Below are positions 15,053 to 45,587 of a stretch of 58,517 nucleotides of DNA, piece after piece. How positions within the stretch are numbered: the stretch's first letter is position 1; every line of letters starts with the position of its first letter. The notes beneath the pieces were generated by a model, which saw only the letters and a program-made list of their open reading frames with translations, was not told the DNA's origin and searched no databases. This DNA comes from a virus (Duplodnaviria; Caudoviricetes): IMG/VR virus record IMGVR_UViG_3300031746_000019, positions 1 to 58,517 of that record; one strand, 5' to 3'. The position numbers and the translations under genes were made by a program.

Positions 15053-15459
15053 CTCCGCTCCCTCCGGTGAGGATGCCCCTCATCGGGCATGCTTCCAGTC
15101 ACTACGATTCCCGCCTTCTCGACTCGGTGTCTCAGCTCCTCTACCTCCGCATGCTCGATCATCTTCTGGACTACCTCCATTGCGTCCTCATCTTCTTCGG
15201 GCCACCACCAGGACACCGGACGGATCCTCATGAGGATCCCAGCTCGAGCGATGGAGTTACTAGTCAGAATGTTCTGCTGTGCCACTCCCTGTGGGCCTGG
15301 GACGAGAATGGTGCGCAGGCAACGGCACTCCCCCAAGAAGATGAAGCTGCTCAGACGATCGCTGATTCCGGAATCATCCAAGGGAGTCTTCCCGAGATAG
15401 AGTAGCTGTGGAGTCCCGTCAGAGACTAAGACCCACTTGTCAGAGTTCGGCTTGTCCAT
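15049..15459 (-). CDS. Hypothetical protein (136 aa)
   Basis: In operon with overlapping start/stop. Confidence 0.6.
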   Translation of the reverse strand: MDKPNSDKWVLVSDGTPQLLYLGKTPLDDSGISDRLSSFIFLGECRCLRTILVPGPQGVAQQNILTSNSIARAGILMRIRPVSWWWPEEDEDAMEVVQKMIEHAEVEELRHRVEKAGIVVTGSMPDEGHPHRRERR

Positions 15460-17974
15460 CAGTACCCTCCATGTATGGACGGAGGACGGTGTAGTCCAGG
15501 GGACCTCCCTGATCTACGGGCCATCCTCTCAGTTGCTTCTTCAGGGTGGTGCACATCTTGTGCATCTTCGGCACGTAGATGTAGTCCAAGATCACAACAA
15601 CCGGCGTCTTCTTCCCCTCCCTGTGCCGCTGGATTCTGCCGATGCCTTGCTGGAGGGTGTTGAACCCACCCTCCTCAATCGCAGAGCTCCCGAATGGAGT
15701 CAGGAAGAACAAGGTGTCGAGAGACGCCTCATCCAGCGCTTCTTTCACAAGCTGGAGTGTGCCGAAGCTAAGTCTCTTTGTCTGGATGGTGGTGATTCGA
15801 TCCTCGGGCTTCTCATTCCCGGTGCAGAGTCCGGAGTCAGCAAACATGGCATTGAGCATTTGCAGTTGCTCAACACTGTGGCTGAGTGCCAGCACCTTCC
15901 TCCCCGATTCGAGAGGCTTTCGGAGCTTGCTGGCGATGAACTCGTTGCACTCAGGATGAGTCCCGAGGTAGTTGCGGAGACGCGGGATACAGAGCTTCCC
16001 GTTCTTGTCGTTGATGGCTTCTTGAACGAGGGGATCGTTCAAGTTGGGTCTGAACGCACACGCCTGGAAGTAGACACGAGGCTTCAGGTCTTGGCTTAGG
16101 TCTCGGAAGTAGGCCTGGCCGATGTGGTACTGGTACATCGCTTCCAGGCCGTCTTCTCTGTTGGTCGTAGCTGTCAGTCCGTGTCGTTCTCCGTAGAACA
16201 GGGGCGCAGTCGGAAGGAAAAGGGGTGCAGAAACGTGATGGCAGTTGTGTACTACGGGGCCTCGACCAACTAGGTACGTTGGGCTTCCTTTGATCTGGAG
16301 ATTGTAGACAAGACCATTCGGACAACGTCCGCCAAATGTCCCGTCACTTGTTTGTTGGTGTACCTTAGTACGATCCACCCTAGTCCACGCAGGAAGGCGT
16401 CTTTCCGAGCGTCCTGTTCTCGCCTCTGAAAGGACTGGTGTGATTGGCCGTCCACCTCTATGGCGATCTTCAGTGCCTCGTTCGCTATATCGATTTTGTA
16501 GTGCGTGGGTGCCCCGACGGGCCTCCGACCCTTGGTGGAGATCGTAACTTCCATGGGCCAACCTAGAGAGCTGGCCAGTAGCTGCTGTGGGGCGGGAATC
16601 TCGCGTCCATTCCCTCCCTGTACTGGAGGGTGCCACCCCATGGCGCGGAGAGTTGTCTTCTGCTTCTCTCGCGTCACTGCATCGCTCATCGGGTTCTTCT
16701 TCTTCATACGTCGAGAGTTGATCTTTGCTCTCCGTGTGTTGGTGTCGTGCGCCACCTCGGAGCTTCTCTTCGATCTCCACACAGCCATACAATCTGCGGA
16801 GCAGTACGCCCTTCCAGAACGCCGCCATTGCTCTAGAGCCTTCCGCCCATGCACGAGCACCTGCCCCCCACAGTTGGCGCAAGACGTGTGGAACTTTGTG
16901 CACCTGCTTTGTCTTCTCTCCTCTAAGCACATCTGGCAGTAGGCCCCGGTCCCCTTTCCCGCTGTTGGTTTCCCACATTGGCAGGTCTTCTTCACGTCTC
17001 TGCTCCTTCATGAAGCACAACACCACATCTTCGCACGTCAAATGAATAGCGGCAACCCACCTTCGTTGAGTCCAGAAGGGGTGGTTGTGTGTGCAGACAA
17101 TCTCCTCACCACCAACGATCACGGACATGAGATTACGGGGCCGGGACACGAAGACGTGTTCGACTGGCTGCTTGGTTATTGATCCAGTGTCCTCATCAAA
17201 GGACCAGACTAGATCTCCGACCTTCCTTTGTTCTATGGGGATGCCATCCACAGGCGTTCCGGCTACGAAGCACTCGTCGTATATGACCAGGCCGAAGTAT
17301 CGATCGATGCCCATAGGTAGTTGGGCATGGCGGAGCCCAAGGGAGTGGATCATGGCAAGGACTATGCCCCGCCCTTGCCAGTCCCACTTGTTCGGGGGCC
17401 CTTGAATCAGACCGATGCCTCCGGGCACATCCAGGAACTCCTGGATTCGGTCACGCCACTGATTGATGAGCGTGGTGTTGTTCACGATTACTAGAGCTGG
17501 CACCTTCCGTTGTTCTATCAGGTGAAGTGCCAGTACCGTTTTCCCTTTGCCACAACTCAGATTCAGCAAACCTCCATGTGAAGAGCACATGGCAGCGGCT
17601 GCCAGCTTCTGTGTTTGTAAGTGTGGCTTTTGGGCATCGAGAACAATGCGGCTCTCGAACTCGACTCTGGGTGGCGGGTCTGGAGTAATAGAGACGACAG
17701 GGAACTGCAACGATCCCAACTCTCCATACGGGATGAAGGAGCGAGGAACCACGAGGTGGTCCCCCACATCCTCCCACAGCTGGATGTACTTCAGCCCCTC
17801 GCTGTCCATCACAGGGAACTCGAGCCCTGCCTTCACTGCTCGAGTATTGATGTGTGCCTTGGGCAACCATAGCTGTCTGCCTAGGTAACCTTTGTTCGGA
17901 TCTAGACGGATGAAGATCAAGTCGCCTCCAATTTCATGACGGACGTCATGAAACCTCCAACTACTTGGAATCAT
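15440..17974 (-). CDS. Superfamily 2 DExH helicase (UvsW/XPB-like) interrupted by an intein
   Basis: Motif I CGKGKT; motif II DE|CH reconstituted after splicing; motif III GLTAT; motif VI QGIGRIQR. Confidence 0.85.
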   Translation of the reverse strand: MIPSSWRFHDVRHEIGGDLIFIRLDPNKGYLGRQLWLPKAHINTRAVKAGLEFPVMDSEGLKYIQLWEDVGDHLVVPRSFIPYGELGSLQFPVVSITPDPPPRVEFESRIVLDAQKPHLQTQKLAAAAMCSSHGGLLNLSCGKGKTVLALHLIEQRKVPALVIVNNTTLINQWRDRIQEFLDVPGGIGLIQGPPNKWDWQGRGIVLAMIHSLGLRHAQLPMGIDRYFGLVIYDECFVAGTPVDGIPIEQRKVGDLVWSFDEDTGSITKQPVEHVFVSRPRNLMSVIVGGEEIVCTHNHPFWTQRRWVAAIHLTCEDVVLCFMKEQRREEDLPMWETNSGKGDRGLLPDVLRGEKTKQVHKVPHVLRQLWGAGARAWAEGSRAMAAFWKGVLLRRLYGCVEIEEKLRGGARHQHTESKDQLSTYEEEEPDERCSDAREAEDNSPRHGVAPSSTGREWTRDSRPTAATGQLSRLAHGSYDLHQGSEARRGTHALQNRYSERGTEDRHRGGRPITPVLSEARTGRSERRLPAWTRVDRTKVHQQTSDGTFGGRCPNGLVYNLQIKGSPTYLVGRGPVVHNCHHVSAPLFLPTAPLFYGERHGLTATTNREDGLEAMYQYHIGQAYFRDLSQDLKPRVYFQACAFRPNLNDPLVQEAINDKNGKLCIPRLRNYLGTHPECNEFIASKLRKPLESGRKVLALSHSVEQLQMLNAMFADSGLCTGNEKPEDRITTIQTKRLSFGTLQLVKEALDEASLDTLFFLTPFGSSAIEEGGFNTLQQGIGRIQRHREGKKTPVVVILDYIYVPKMHKMCTTLKKQLRGWPVDQGGPLDYTVLRPYMEGTDGQAEL
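16244..17272 (-). mobile_element. Intein (343 aa) in helicase motif II
   Basis: Starts CFVAGT; block B CTHNHPF; ends VYNLQI...VVHN followed by +1 Cys. Confidence 0.9.
16270..16995 (-). CDS. DUF559/Vsr-like endonuclease with N-terminal Cys-rich zinc fingers, nested out of frame inside the intein
   Basis: Own AAGGAG SD and GTG start; CxC..CxxC, CxxC..YCSxxC; 'YKIDIA.....IAIEVDGQSH......DARKDAFLRGLGWIVLRYTN'. Confidence 0.85.
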   Translation of the reverse strand: MKKTCQCGKPTAGKGTGAYCQMCLEERRQSRCTKFHTSCANCGGQVLVHGRKALEQWRRSGRAYCSADCMAVWRSKRSSEVAHDTNTRRAKINSRRMKKKNPMSDAVTREKQKTTLRAMGWHPPVQGGNGREIPAPQQLLASSLGWPMEVTISTKGRRPVGAPTHYKIDIANEALKIAIEVDGQSHQSFQRREQDARKDAFLRGLGWIVLRYTNKQVTGHLADVVRMVLSTISRSKEAQRT

Positions 17975-18045
17975 TAGGACGGTGTGATCAAGAGGGGCTC
18001 TCCGTCTGGTGGAGAGCCCTTATTGTACATACGGCGTGCGTCCTG

Positions 18046-18393
18046 TCAACGGATGCGGTAGTTGCACCAGAAGCTGTACATCTCGTAGAACATGCCTCGG
18101 AGAAGACCTCCTGCGGCATCCTTGAAGAACCTCTCGACCGGCTTTTCTCCCTCGGAGACGACACCGGACTCGTAGTTCCCCGCGTCTGGATTGTGGTTGG
18201 AAGATCGATGACGGACGGGGACAGGCGCACTTGCACCTCCCCCACGGTTTTCGATCTCCGCCCGGCAGGAGTTGCGGAATCTGCATTGATTCGCACACTC
18301 TGGGTCCTGTGGATCGTAGCTTCTTGCGCTGCCCCAGCAGTTGGGCCTTTGACTTGAGTACGCACCTCCTCTAAGACTATCTGCATAGCCCAT
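18046..18393 (-). CDS. Small Cys-motif hypothetical protein (115 aa), first gene of the left operon
   Basis: GAGGAG SD; CWG....YDP..PEC...C.F..SC motif. Confidence 0.65.
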   Translation of the reverse strand: MGYADSLRGGAYSSQRPNCWGSARSYDPQDPECANQCRFRNSCRAEIENRGGGASAPVPVRHRSSNHNPDAGNYESGVVSEGEKPVERFFKDAAGGLLRGMFYEMYSFWCNYRIR

Positions 18394-41790: not shown

Positions 41791-42465
41791 ATGAACCCAG
41801 TCGAAGAGTTCCTCGAGCTACAGAAGCAAGCGAACTGGCTTGGTGACTTCGGCAGGGCTCTGGTTGGTCATGGCCCGGGACAGGGAGGTTCCGCCTCGAC
41901 TGCTGCGCAGCTCTTTCAGGCTCCCCTTGCCGCCGCTGCGATAGCGGGTACTGGGCTAGGGATCAGCAAGGGCGTGGGAGCGATCAGAGAGCATTTTGGT
42001 AAGGCTCGGGACTTCCAGAGGATGGTTGAGGAGAACCCATCGCTTCAGAAGGAAGACGCCCGGCACGTCCAGATGCTCTACAACTCTCTGCGTCGCCTCT
42101 CTCCCACGATGGCCAAAGATCCTCTTCTGGCTGGCTCATTCGTACGAGACTCAATCCGCTTCGGACCCGAAGGAGGTCCAGCCGTAGCTCCAAGTACGGC
42201 TAAGATGCTTGCGGATACAGAGAAGGGTGTGGCCGGGGCTGGGAAGAGACATCCAATTCTCGATCTCCTGGGCGGTGTGGGCCGTATAATGCCTCCGCAA
42301 CAGAAACACGAGCTCCCACCGCAGCTAGTAGGACATATCGAAACTCGACGTAATCTCCCAGGGCGCTCTGGAACAATTAGCGCAAAGCAGAACGTATACG
42401 ATCCAGCCGAATGGAACCGCATGTCGGCCGCCGCCGCCGGGGTAGCAGGCCAAACTAACCCATGA
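41791..42465 (+). CDS. Leader-like virion protein (224 aa)
   Basis: MNPVEEFLELQKQA followed by a Gly/Ala hydrophobic segment. Confidence 0.6.
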   Translation: MNPVEEFLELQKQANWLGDFGRALVGHGPGQGGSASTAAQLFQAPLAAAAIAGTGLGISKGVGAIREHFGKARDFQRMVEENPSLQKEDARHVQMLYNSLRRLSPTMAKDPLLAGSFVRDSIRFGPEGGPAVAPSTAKMLADTEKGVAGAGKRHPILDLLGGVGRIMPPQQKHELPPQLVGHIETRRNLPGRSGTISAKQNVYDPAEWNRMSAAAAGVAGQTNP

Positions 42466-45400
42466 TCGTCAAGGTTTGCCAATTCCACGCTCGCAGTGAG
42501 CAGGGTGAGCGTCTCGTCGAGGTCTTCCATCCGGGGGACATGGAGAAGGCCGCTGCGTTCTTCGATATGGAGAAGCGTGGCGCTCCTCTCCTACCCGAGG
42601 TGCAGCGGTATCTCCAGAACCTGAAGCCCAACCCGAATAAGATCTACGTGCTCGTCAATGCCCTGGGCGCTGGAGAGTACTGGGGTTCGAATATCAACGG
42701 GGACTACTTCCCAGAAGGCTCATTGATCCATACTGGTCCAGTGTATGGCTACGAGACCTTCTACCAGGCCCATCCCTACAAGCACCACGTCAACAAGGAC
42801 CCAAGCCGGTCCTTCGGACGTGTGGAGCTCTCGGTCTGGCATGACGGAATGAAACGTGTCGAGCTGGTGGTTAGGATCGATCGAGATCTAGCCGCAAGGT
42901 TTGGCGCGCAGGATGTCTGTGACAAGATTGATCACGGGATGTTCCCAGACGTATCGATGGGCTGCCTCCCAGAGGGGAGTCCTGTCTTCCGTGCCGATGG
43001 ACGTCGAGTCCCCATCGAGACGATCAAAGAGGGGGATAGCGTCCTTACCCATAAGGGCAGGCCCCGTCGGGTCACGTCTGTGATGGCTCGTCCACACAAG
43101 GGGTCGATCTATCACGTCAAGGCGTATGGACATCGTGACGCCCTGGTGCTGACCGGGGAACACCCTTTGTGGCTCATTCGCCAAGAACAGATGGAGTGCC
43201 GCCCGTCCCCCAAGACTGTGAACAGGGGCCGGAAGCAGCACGTCTGCACTCCGGACAGCAGCCACTCCAAGATGGGCTGCGCGGGGTGTTCTACCTCTCC
43301 CCAGTACCAGTTCGAGTGGGTCCGTACCGATGAGGCGTGTGAAGGGGATTATCTGGCGATCCCGGTTCCCAATTACAAGACCAACATCAGGTTCACAGCT
43401 GATCAGGCGCGACTGCTGGGGTACTACTTGTCCGAAGGGCTCGTCCTTCGCACGAAGGCCGGCACCCCCATGGCCGTTCAGTTCTGTACGAATCTCTGGG
43501 AGATCCAGACACACGCGGAGTTGTACCAGCTAGGGGAGCGGCTGGGCTTGAATGTGACGGAGTACGACGCAGAGGATCGAAACGGGAAGTACATCAGCAT
43601 CTGGGACAGATCACTGGCAGAGTTGTGCTCTCAGCATTGTGGTGAGAAGGCACTGACGAAGAGGTTGTCGAGCGATCTGATTAGTGCTGACGTAGAGACA
43701 CTTCTCCTGCTTTTGGGTGCTTACGCCAACGGGGACGGTGGCTGCTACAAGGGCTCTCTCTACTTCTCTACTGCCTCGGAGGAGCTGTCAGAGCAACTGC
43801 GTCTAGTTCTGGCCCGTTGTGGGATGATCGCCTCGGTCAACGAGCTTGTTCACAAACCTTCGAAGCTTGTTCCCAAAGAGACCGTCGAGTTTCAGGTGTG
43901 GGTCGGGACTGACACAGCCTGGAAGCTGACGACGGCTCACGTACCTTTTGGGAAGTCAGATCGACTTTGCAGCAAGCGCTTCTTCTACACATACGAAGGC
44001 GTCACGTACCTGGTGACGCCCATCGAATCTGTGGAGGAGACCCCCTACGACGGTGACGTCTACAACTTCGGGGTAGAAGAAGACGAAAGCTACCAGGTGG
44101 AAGGACTTGCGGTCCACAACTGCAAGGTCCCCTACGACATCTGTTCTGTCTGCACAGACTGGGCGAAATACAGGGATGCACAGGCCACCTATGAGCCAAG
44201 CAGACACAAGTCAGCTGGTGCTGCGGTACTCGAGTTCCATCGTAAGAACCCCATTCGGGGTATCTCTGTCACCCGCAACGACTACTGCACCCATCTCAAG
44301 AATCAGCTCAACAAAATTCTTGAGGATGGGCGTAAGGTCTATGCGATCAACGACTACCCTAGGTTCTTCGACATCAGCTTCGTCTTCATCGGTGCGGACA
44401 AGACGGCCAAGGTAATGGCCAAGCTAGCATCGGGCGCGGACTGCGTACCTTCCTGGTATGTTGCCGAGCAGATGGGCTACGATATGCCCTTGATGGAGAA
44501 GGAATTCGAAAAGGCGGCAGTGGCAGGTGGTCTGATTGACGATCTCCTACAAGGTGCCCGAGCGCGCTACAGCCCGGATGCTCTGAATACGAAGAAGATC
44601 GTAAAGCTGGTCACCAAGGCCAAAGAGCGTATGGACGCCCCTCCCCCCATCAAGAAAGAGGGCAGCGTCGCATCTGTGAGGGCACTGCTCCGAGAGAAAA
44701 GGGCTTCCCACAAGAAGGGCGCGGAGATTACAAAGGATGTGGTCCCCTCTCAGTTTGGGGGAAAGGCCGTGCCCGTGGATCGAAACACCCCAGACCTACC
44801 GAATGAGATCTTGGACAGGTTGGGAAAAGGGCCACTCGAAGAAGCACTCTCCACCCCTTCTTCCTTGGGTATGCTCCTCCGGCCTCGAGAGTTCCAGCGC
44901 ATCACCATCATCAGCATCGGTCGTAAGGACCTCGCGGACAAGATGGACGAGGAGGGCAAGGTGTTCCCTCCGACCTCTGACCGTGACGCATCCCTTCCTA
45001 TGGGCGGGGAGCACATCAGCGACGTCATCAAGAAGCTCTTGCTTCCGTTCTTGGAGGACAGGAGCTACTTGGAGCCAGTGGCCAAGAGAAGAATGGCTCG
45101 TAGCGCGGGTGAGAGCTCGAAGGCACCCCAGGTAGAGAAGGTAAAGAGAGCTGCTGTAGAAACCCCCTTCCTACGGAAGATCTCCGCAGCCTATAATGGC
45201 TACCTAGATCGAGCGATAGGATGTTTCAAGTACGCGGCAGAAGCTGTTAACAATGACCCGGAGTTGTGGGAAGCTGTGTTCCACTCTGGGTTGGCTGATG
45301 GGTTCGAGAAGCAAGCAGAAGAGAAAGTGAATCCAGCAGTAGTGCTTGGTGCAATTGGCGGCGGGTGGGCTCTCAGCGAATACGCACGGAGACAGAGAAG

Positions 45401-45587
45401 CAAGGCCATGCAGGGGAACAGAGAGCCAGTGGGACCGATTACAGACCTGATCGCGGAATATCCGAAGATCCTGATGGTCTTGGCCGGTCTCGGTGCATTG
45501 CACCAGCAAGGTTCGTCAATCCCACGTAGACTCGTGGGGAGCTTGGGTGGCTTCGTGAAGGATCCGCTCGGGCCAGGGAAAAGCTAA
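42462..45587 (+). CDS. Prohead maturation protease (HK97/assemblin-like fold) with intein and long C-terminal extension
   Basis: N.NGDYF, 'HHVNKD....GRV', VSMG|C (putative catalytic Ser), 'FFDISFV..GAD.TA'; lies upstream of scaffold-like genes and the MCP. Confidence 0.7.
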   Translation: MIVKVCQFHARSEQGERLVEVFHPGDMEKAAAFFDMEKRGAPLLPEVQRYLQNLKPNPNKIYVLVNALGAGEYWGSNINGDYFPEGSLIHTGPVYGYETFYQAHPYKHHVNKDPSRSFGRVELSVWHDGMKRVELVVRIDRDLAARFGAQDVCDKIDHGMFPDVSMGCLPEGSPVFRADGRRVPIETIKEGDSVLTHKGRPRRVTSVMARPHKGSIYHVKAYGHRDALVLTGEHPLWLIRQEQMECRPSPKTVNRGRKQHVCTPDSSHSKMGCAGCSTSPQYQFEWVRTDEACEGDYLAIPVPNYKTNIRFTADQARLLGYYLSEGLVLRTKAGTPMAVQFCTNLWEIQTHAELYQLGERLGLNVTEYDAEDRNGKYISIWDRSLAELCSQHCGEKALTKRLSSDLISADVETLLLLLGAYANGDGGCYKGSLYFSTASEELSEQLRLVLARCGMIASVNELVHKPSKLVPKETVEFQVWVGTDTAWKLTTAHVPFGKSDRLCSKRFFYTYEGVTYLVTPIESVEETPYDGDVYNFGVEEDESYQVEGLAVHNCKVPYDICSVCTDWAKYRDAQATYEPSRHKSAGAAVLEFHRKNPIRGISVTRNDYCTHLKNQLNKILEDGRKVYAINDYPRFFDISFVFIGADKTAKVMAKLASGADCVPSWYVAEQMGYDMPLMEKEFEKAAVAGGLIDDLLQGARARYSPDALNTKKIVKLVTKAKERMDAPPPIKKEGSVASVRALLREKRASHKKGAEITKDVVPSQFGGKAVPVDRNTPDLPNEILDRLGKGPLEEALSTPSSLGMLLRPREFQRITIISIGRKDLADKMDEEGKVFPPTSDRDASLPMGGEHISDVIKKLLLPFLEDRSYLEPVAKRRMARSAGESSKAPQVEKVKRAAVETPFLRKISAAYNGYLDRAIGCFKYAAEAVNNDPELWEAVFHSGLADGFEKQAEEKVNPAVVLGAIGGGWALSEYARRQRSKAMQGNREPVGPITDLIAEYPKILMVLAGLGALHQQGSSIPRRLVGSLGGFVKDPLGPGKS
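42963..44120 (+). mobile_element. Intein (386 aa) with in-frame LAGLIDADG homing endonuclease
   Basis: Starts CLPEG; block B LTGEHP; LLGYYLSEG and LLGAYANGDG motifs; ends VYNFGVEEDESY...AVHN followed by +1 Cys. Confidence 0.92.

Follow-up and report, generated by a model that had tools for sequence, protein, structure and literature searches.

Here we describe the helicase locus of IMG/VR virus record IMGVR_UViG_3300031746_000019 (Duplodnaviria; Caudoviricetes), analysed over its full length of 58,517 nucleotides (nt), which we refer to as the window. A gene for an SF2/ResIII-type helicase on the minus strand is interrupted in motif II (Walker B) by an intein, and between the two halves of that intein, on the same strand but in the +1 frame of the helicase, lies a second gene for a predicted zinc-finger and Vsr-like/EDxHD (DUF559) endonuclease (Table 1). 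The frame shared by helicase and intein is called frame 0, or the host frame, throughout. We read the locus as a two-part mobile element that would combine a cis-splicing mini-intein with a separately initiated homing-endonuclease gene in the +1 frame, and we put the probability of this reading at roughly 80%.

Table 1. Features of the helicase locus in window coordinates (pLDDT, predicted local distance difference test score)
Feature	Positions	Strand	Remarks
Helicase precursor gene, 844 residues, SF2/ResIII type, holds the intein	15440..17974	-	Open reading frame, Pfam and PHROG
N-extein, ends ...VIYDE (motif II residues)	17273..17974	-	
Intein, class-1 type, 343 residues (1029 nt)	16244..17272	-	Cys1, block B T61-x-x-H64, His342-Asn343, Cys+1
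C-extein, starts CHHVSAP (motif II resumes)	15440..16243	-	
N-terminal HINT splicing region, intein residues 1-90	17003..17272	-	pLDDT 87-97
Frame-0 'linker', intein residues 91-290	16403..17002	-	Stop-free, not conserved, predicted disordered, pLDDT 35-62
C-terminal HINT splicing region, intein residues 291-343	16244..16402	-	pLDDT 86-96
Nested gene, 241 residues and TAG, predicted zinc-finger and Vsr-like/EDxHD (DUF559) endonuclease	16270..16995	-	+1 frame of helicase, GTG start
Zinc-finger module, nuclease residues about 37-70	16786..16887	-	C39, C42, C65, C69
Nuclease core, residues 148-235	16291..16554	-	E180, D182, H186, D195, K198 conserved
Shine-Dalgarno motif AAGGAG, 7 nt before the nested GTG	17003..17008	-	In frame 0 part of the M-K-E codons
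Promoter-like site TTGACA-16-TACAAT, 11/12, just upstream of the helicase start	18022..18049	-	Consensus scan only

The helicase intein and its nested nuclease gene

The precursor matches Pfam ResIII (E 4.6e-10) and PHROG 16, 'DNA helicase' (E 8.2e-24), while blastn of the gene against phage records returned no match. Its intein, CFVAGT...VVHN, is inserted in helicase motif II at YDE/CHH (here and below the slash marks the insertion point), carries the Cys1 nucleophile and has a block B that reads T61-H-N-H64. C1, H64 and N343 are invariant among 19 related inteins, and H342 is kept in at least 90% of them. In an AlphaFold model of the frame-0 intein, made with 18 related inteins, residues 1-90 and 291-343 reach a pLDDT of 86-97, and Foldseek matched the joined intein ends to the mini-inteins Ssp DnaB, Mtu RecA, gp41-1 and NrdJ-1, each with a probability of 1.00. 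Pfam PT-HINT passes its cut-off on the window intein (28.5 bits against 27.7), and a Pfam search of frame 0 gave no nuclease family, only HINT/intein matches at residues 12-103.

The +1 product matches Pfam DUF559 over residues 164-232 (E 1.1e-11; 45 bits, cut-off 20.6). Among solved structures, a profile search recovered the DUF559 protein 3hrl (E 2.2e-10) and, far more weakly, 3r3p, the catalytic domain of I-Bth0305I (E 0.012). Modelled by AlphaFold with an alignment of 77 relatives, the product has a mean pLDDT of 92.4, and Foldseek paired the model with 3hrl (probability 1.00; TM, or template modelling, score 0.72 on the target), with 3r3p (0.99) and with Vsr, 1cw0 (0.97), all E-values being above 0.001. 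Residues 37-70 give a weak, below-cut-off match to Pfam zf-FCS (E 0.0025), and the same region matches the MYM-type finger 2das in a profile search (E 0.0011). Across 78 aligned nuclease sequences C39, C42 and C65 of the putative finger are invariant and C69 is present in at least 90%; in the core, there is no variation at E180 or D195 and at least 90% conservation at D182, H186 and K198, the E/D/H/D set being equated with the catalytic residues of Vsr by motif position, not by superposition. PHROGs yielded weak matches only for the nuclease, and NCBIfam a weak DUF559 match and nothing further. Judged by these profiles and models, the nested product is an EDxHD/Vsr-like (DUF559) endonuclease with an N-terminal zinc finger. 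The original prediction, made from the letters of the sequence, had proposed an intein with intact splicing blocks, no recognisable endonuclease motif in frame 0, and a zinc-finger plus DUF559/Vsr-like nuclease in the +1 frame. The splicing blocks are borne out by Cys1, the TxxH motif, the His-Asn pair and the predicted HINT fold, the second point by the Pfam result for frame 0, and the third by Pfam, the profile search and the AlphaFold and Foldseek results.

The nested layout recurs well beyond the window. A tblastn search of phage records with the nuclease returned 43 records; in Vibrio phage CP-T1, Corynebacterium phage phi673 and Pseudomonas phage MR14 the homologue lies +1 within an annotated helicase coding sequence, whose intein sits at DE/CHH. 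The wider nuclease family numbers 1112 representatives at E <= 1e-10. We collected 115 related loci from viral, genome and metagenome contigs, a redundant set drawn from overlapping collections. The nuclease is nested +1 within a long open host frame at 85 of them and lies in frame at 24, and the other 6 are arranged otherwise; 68 nested loci are distinct in the last 150 residues of the nuclease. The nested nuclease is always +1 to the host frame, the other same-strand phase being found in none of the 115 loci, and the intein boundary, where it was found, falls at or right after the DE or EE of Walker B. By Pfam the host proteins include SNF2/ResIII helicases, clamp-loader-like AAA+ proteins (for example L011 and L013) and one protein with a DNA-methylase domain. 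The nuclease is broken at one locus, L063.

The public annotations of the three cultured-phage loci (L001, L002 and L003; NC_019457, NC_042354 and MT104474) hold the helicase coding sequence only and leave the nested nuclease gene unannotated. Gene callers and annotators miss nested nuclease genes of this kind, as these three records illustrate.

Reading frames and start signals across the nuclease gene

Frame 0 stays free of stops across the whole of the nuclease gene. When the nuclease-frame span of the window was shuffled 5000 times among synonymous codons, the host frame acquired 6.35 stops on average and remained open in a single shuffle, against 0 stops observed. The same holds at all 28 loci tested: each has 0 host-frame stops, with shuffle means between 4.9 and 19.7 and between 0 and 9 open frames per 5000 shuffles, figures on which we reject a chance open frame. 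The third frame across the nuclease span contains 7-34 stops at these 28 loci.

Constraint on the encoded protein is concentrated in the nuclease frame. Among 24 non-redundant sequences, nucleotide variability at nuclease codon positions 1, 2 and 3 is 0.486, 0.439 and 0.649, and amino-acid identity over the 276 pairs averages 0.399 for the nuclease frame, as against 0.208 for the host frame and 0.212 for the third. In each of six independent pairs, substitutions that are silent for the nuclease and change the host frame outnumber the reverse (293 against 104 in sum). Three close pairs, of which two have a member in common, give an omega-like ratio of 0.17 in the nuclease frame, against 0.86 in the host frame. 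What looks like a motif in frame 0, LQDRH/LQNRY, is the shadow of the nuclease sequence HYKIDIAN when read from the codons. These comparisons support purifying selection on the nuclease frame, and likewise support the view that frame 0 over the centre of the nuclease has no amino-acid constraint of its own and is kept stop-free. Selection of this form, purifying in +1 and near-neutral in frame 0, had been anticipated by the original prediction.

The pattern changes at the 3' end of the nuclease gene. Over the last 20 intein codons it is reversed, with variability highest at host position 3. The nuclease stop codon (16270-16272) lies 26 nt before the last base of the intein in the window (median 44 nt across loci), so that the nested frame runs into the C-terminal splicing region, as had been claimed from the sequence. 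Bases 16273-16402, about 130 nt, encode both nuclease residues 198-241 and the C-terminal splicing region, and the models give a folded protein in both frames; on codon pattern and model together, the 3' end of the nuclease gene appears to be truly dual-coded. The further proposal that frame 0 is kept open only as a spliced-out linker is thus correct in part. It fits the stop-free, predicted disordered and unconstrained centre, but over the final stretch of some 130 nt the host frame is constrained and belongs to a region predicted to be folded, so that the linker description does not extend to the entire overlap.

The nested gene has start signals of its own. The Shine-Dalgarno motif and GTG start that had been read from the window are both present, and a stop codon 12 nt ahead of the GTG closes the nuclease frame. 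At least 14 further loci resemble the window in having a stop 0-15 nt upstream of the nested frame's first start, and a Shine-Dalgarno match of at least 5 nt precedes the start codon at 42 of 66 non-identical nested loci, compared with 16.8% of 5948 control windows (p 2e-17). Because a consensus scan found a promoter-like site just upstream of the helicase and none inside the intein, expression of the nuclease would rely on internal initiation on the helicase mRNA.

Proposed working of the element, rival explanations and origin

In the working that we propose, the element would occupy the DE/CH site in motif II of a phage SF2 helicase, where the two intein halves, predicted to form a HINT fold and read in the helicase frame, would splice the helicase in cis. 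The nuclease gene between the halves, with its own Shine-Dalgarno motif, GTG and TAG, would be translated separately through internal initiation on the helicase mRNA, and ribosomes in the helicase frame would cross it to produce a probably disordered tether of about 200 residues, maintained only in that it is stop-free. The nuclease, to judge from its family, would cut intein-less DE/CH alleles, upon which repair would copy the whole element.

Several observations weigh against this reading. Two loci, L050 and L082, each have a single stop in the host-frame linker with the nuclease frame intact, and the open frame is therefore not universal, or these contigs contain errors. The omega-like ratios come from few close pairs, 24 of the 66 loci have no Shine-Dalgarno match of at least 5 nt, and, with no promoter-like site inside the intein by consensus scan, internal initiation would have to compete with ribosomes elongating in frame 0. 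For the splicing domain, Pfam Intein_splicing reaches 25 bits on the window intein, below its cut-off of 35.8, and PT-HINT is the only one of the two that passes. In the contigs of four further sediment-metagenome runs we saw no intein-less allele of the window helicase, which does not imply absence, as rare variants are lost from contigs. Among 14 sequencing runs listed for the locus, none is of RNA.

The window comes from a metagenome-derived virus record, and two compensating indel errors could in principle have displaced a nuclease that is truly in frame with the intein, an outcome that the original prediction had named as one that would overturn it. We looked for such errors in the contigs of the four other runs and found no inserted or deleted letters across 15440-17974. 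The same +1 layout occurs in three cultured-phage genomes and at 85 of the 115 loci, and sequencing or assembly errors would not keep the host frame free of stops. On these grounds we reject an artefact, whose probability we regard as negligible. Programmed +1 ribosomal frameshifting, which would join the nuclease to the N-terminal part of the intein as a truncated fusion, agrees with the presence of both frames on one mRNA and the lack of an internal promoter-like site in the consensus scan. However, with a stop 0-15 nt ahead of the first start there is hardly any space for a shift site, and this arrangement together with the Shine-Dalgarno motifs before nested starts argues for independent initiation; we reject frameshifting as highly improbable.

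A quite different possibility is that the element is a fixed relic, in which the intein still splices but synthesis of the nuclease, or its homing, has been lost, and the nuclease reading frame persists only temporarily. This would account for the lack of an intein-less allele in the contigs of the four runs, and decay does occur in the family, as seen in the host-frame stops of L050 and L082 and the broken nuclease of L063. Nevertheless, purifying selection on the nuclease frame extends across relatives at 33-55% identity, E180, D182, H186 and D195 are conserved in the 78 relatives, and Shine-Dalgarno motifs are enriched before the nested starts. Variation at the window locus points the same way: comparison of the window with the contigs of the four runs shows 24 variant sites, every one of them synonymous and located in the exteins, and none in the 1029-nt intein, so that an identical intein is found among helicases whose exteins have diverged at silent sites. 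We therefore consider a relic unlikely. Eight of the 24 variant extein sites lie 18-60 nt from the intein junction. The distribution of the variants as a whole may hint that the intein moved recently between divergent alleles of the helicase and co-converted its flanks, but no more than hint, since the contigs are few and the sites linked.

The remaining alternative differs from the two-part element in its history and not in its present working. A canonical intein with an in-frame EDxHD domain may have undergone two compensating frameshifts, after which the displaced nuclease gained a start of its own. Relatives of the nuclease do occur in frame within inteins. In the UvrD-like helicases L025, L091, L096, L099, L101 and L105 the nuclease core is in frame within an intein at DE/CQD, and in the portal/MuF-like proteins L030-L037 the whole nuclease is in frame in the intein. 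A tree of the family needs few layout changes and leaves their direction free. Against such an origin, the nested genes carry a full set of signals, namely a Shine-Dalgarno motif, a start right after a stop in frame, and their own stop; the in-frame UvrD-like forms are without the zinc-finger module when read from their translations; and the 3' overlap with the C-terminal intein coding sequence resembles the 6-69 bp overlaps described for fractured genes (Dassa et al. 2009, PMC2677866, in the part available). Moreover, the nuclease family has a free-standing member at locus L048 (DUF559, E 1.2e-11), with a near-copy at L049. This gene occupies 305-934 of L048 and runs at its 3' end 11 nt into the next one (924-2246), which encodes an intein-less ResIII helicase with an intact IIVDECHLS. 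We hold the compensating-frameshift history to be a minority possibility, though one to be taken seriously.

Invasion of a mini-intein by a free-standing endonuclease, the origin favoured in the original prediction, would be one possible history; free-standing and in-frame relatives both exist. Two quick trees did not fix the order of the layouts, with 36 of 71 and 41 of 74 inner branches unsupported. Some rows did not enter these trees: from the first, 5 fragmentary rows were excluded manually and another 8, including the window, were dropped because they had a stop in the match or fewer than 110 residues; from the second, 6 were excluded manually and 4 dropped. The second tree requires few layout changes without fixing their direction, and its starred branches force only one change per group. 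A tentative scenario, which we consider less likely than not, is that a free-standing EDxHD gene targeting Walker B coding DNA, as at L048, entered a mini-intein at its own target and spread in the +1-nested form through several P-loop NTPase families, the in-frame UvrD-like inteins and the split-intein-like L050 and L082 being derived from it and the nested state acting as a long-lived, selected hub. If so, the family would hold a live record of how inteins acquire endonuclease domains, together with a reading frame of about 200 codons held purely by stop avoidance.

Two further observations concern these relatives. The near-identical loci L080, L081 and L083 have an open host frame, and L050 and L082 may be either split-intein-like genes or the product of contig errors. 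The UvrD-like open reading frame of L091 (2430-5621) has an apparent second intein-like insert downstream, CQPEGT...TTHN before CQN, as read from its translation.

Relation to known systems

The premise that an intein nuclease in an overlapping frame would be without precedent did not hold, as the layout has been published for LAGLIDADG and endonuclease VII-like nucleases in preprints of 2025 and 2026. The sources compared in this section were available in part, and the comparisons extend as far as those parts do. Gosselin, Arsenault and Gogarten (bioRxiv 10.1101/2025.01.02.630785) describe actinobacteriophage inteins with an endonuclease in another frame or antisense. As here, the host frame is open, the nuclease lies in a different frame between the splicing blocks and the in-frame stretch is structureless, and the authors propose that a free-standing endonuclease gene invaded an intein. 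Their cases differ in the nuclease genes, which are endonuclease VII-like in 'frame 3' and Vsr-like or LAGLIDADG in antisense, and in the hosts, namely DNA polymerase, minor capsid, terminase and thymidylate synthase, whereas ours is a same-strand +1 Vsr-like/EDxHD gene in the Walker B inteins of helicases and clamp loaders, far beyond the actinophages. According to the same preprint, split inteins had until then been the only inteins known to carry Vsr-like endonucleases; the in-frame Vsr-like nucleases of UvrD-like and portal/MuF-like inteins stand beside that statement.

Phillips, DeSimone and Gogarten (bioRxiv 10.64898/2026.09.14.751524), who credit the first proposal of the layout to Gorbalenya 1998, report an out-of-frame LAGLIDADG endonuclease in a cyanobacterial dnaX intein. 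Their system shares with ours the same-strand overlap, a disordered in-frame region, a low omega in the nuclease frame and a relaxed host frame, and its host is a clamp-loader ATPase, comparable with L011 and L013; secondary invasion of a mini-intein is favoured. It differs in that the LAGLIDADG gene, a '+2 ORF', belongs to cellular genomes and that the search there yielded no in-frame relatives, while the EDxHD/Vsr-like gene described here is in the +1 frame, in phages, and has both in-frame and free-standing relatives.

The fractured genes of Dassa et al. likewise place a free-standing Vsr-like endonuclease gene between intein halves in phage DNA-metabolism genes, with a 3' overlap onto the C-terminal intein part. 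There, however, the host is split into two genes whose products are joined by trans splicing, whereas in the window the host frame is open from 17974 to 15440, with no stop after the N-terminal half followed by a new start, and the intein is contiguous. I-Bth0305I, the prototype EDxHD homing endonuclease (Taylor et al. 2011, PMC3239194; PDB 3r3p), for which the composite E, D, x, H, D motif was defined, resembles the window nuclease in its Vsr-like catalytic fold, as predicted by the Foldseek match, and in the conserved composite E, D, H, D residues. It is encoded in a recA group I intron and is only weakly similar in sequence, and the N-terminal DNA-binding part of the window nuclease would be a zinc finger, unlike that of I-Bth0305I. 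The 'ShiLan domain' of phage methylases (Arsenault et al. 2025, PMC11855218) is also an endonuclease gene overprinted on an open host frame, hidden out of frame; it differs in being an HNH enzyme without intein splicing domains and without a detected ribosome-binding site, where the present system has a predicted HINT intein and enriched Shine-Dalgarno motifs.

The layout as such is thus known, and it is the nuclease family and the hosts that are new, and widespread. In the literature accessible to us we found no report of a same-strand +1 Vsr-like/EDxHD gene in helicase or clamp-loader Walker B inteins, although supplements may list more. Overlapped intein endonuclease genes are not confined to a few actinophages or to cyanobacterial dnaX, but extend to a widespread phage lineage with a third type of nuclease. 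As one nuclease family occurs free-standing, nested and in frame, the model in which an endonuclease invades a mini-intein becomes testable, and the centre of the overlap offers what appears to be a clean natural case in which nothing but the avoidance of stops keeps a long reading frame open.

The window contains a second intein, which had been put forward as the conventional counterpart of the helicase intein, with a LAGLIDADG endonuclease in frame, and which is indeed of that kind. It lies in an open reading frame of 1041 residues on the plus strand (42462-45587), with a Pfam LAGLIDADG_3 match of 24 bits, above its cut-off, and an NCBIfam match to the intein C-terminal splicing region at residues 532-554.

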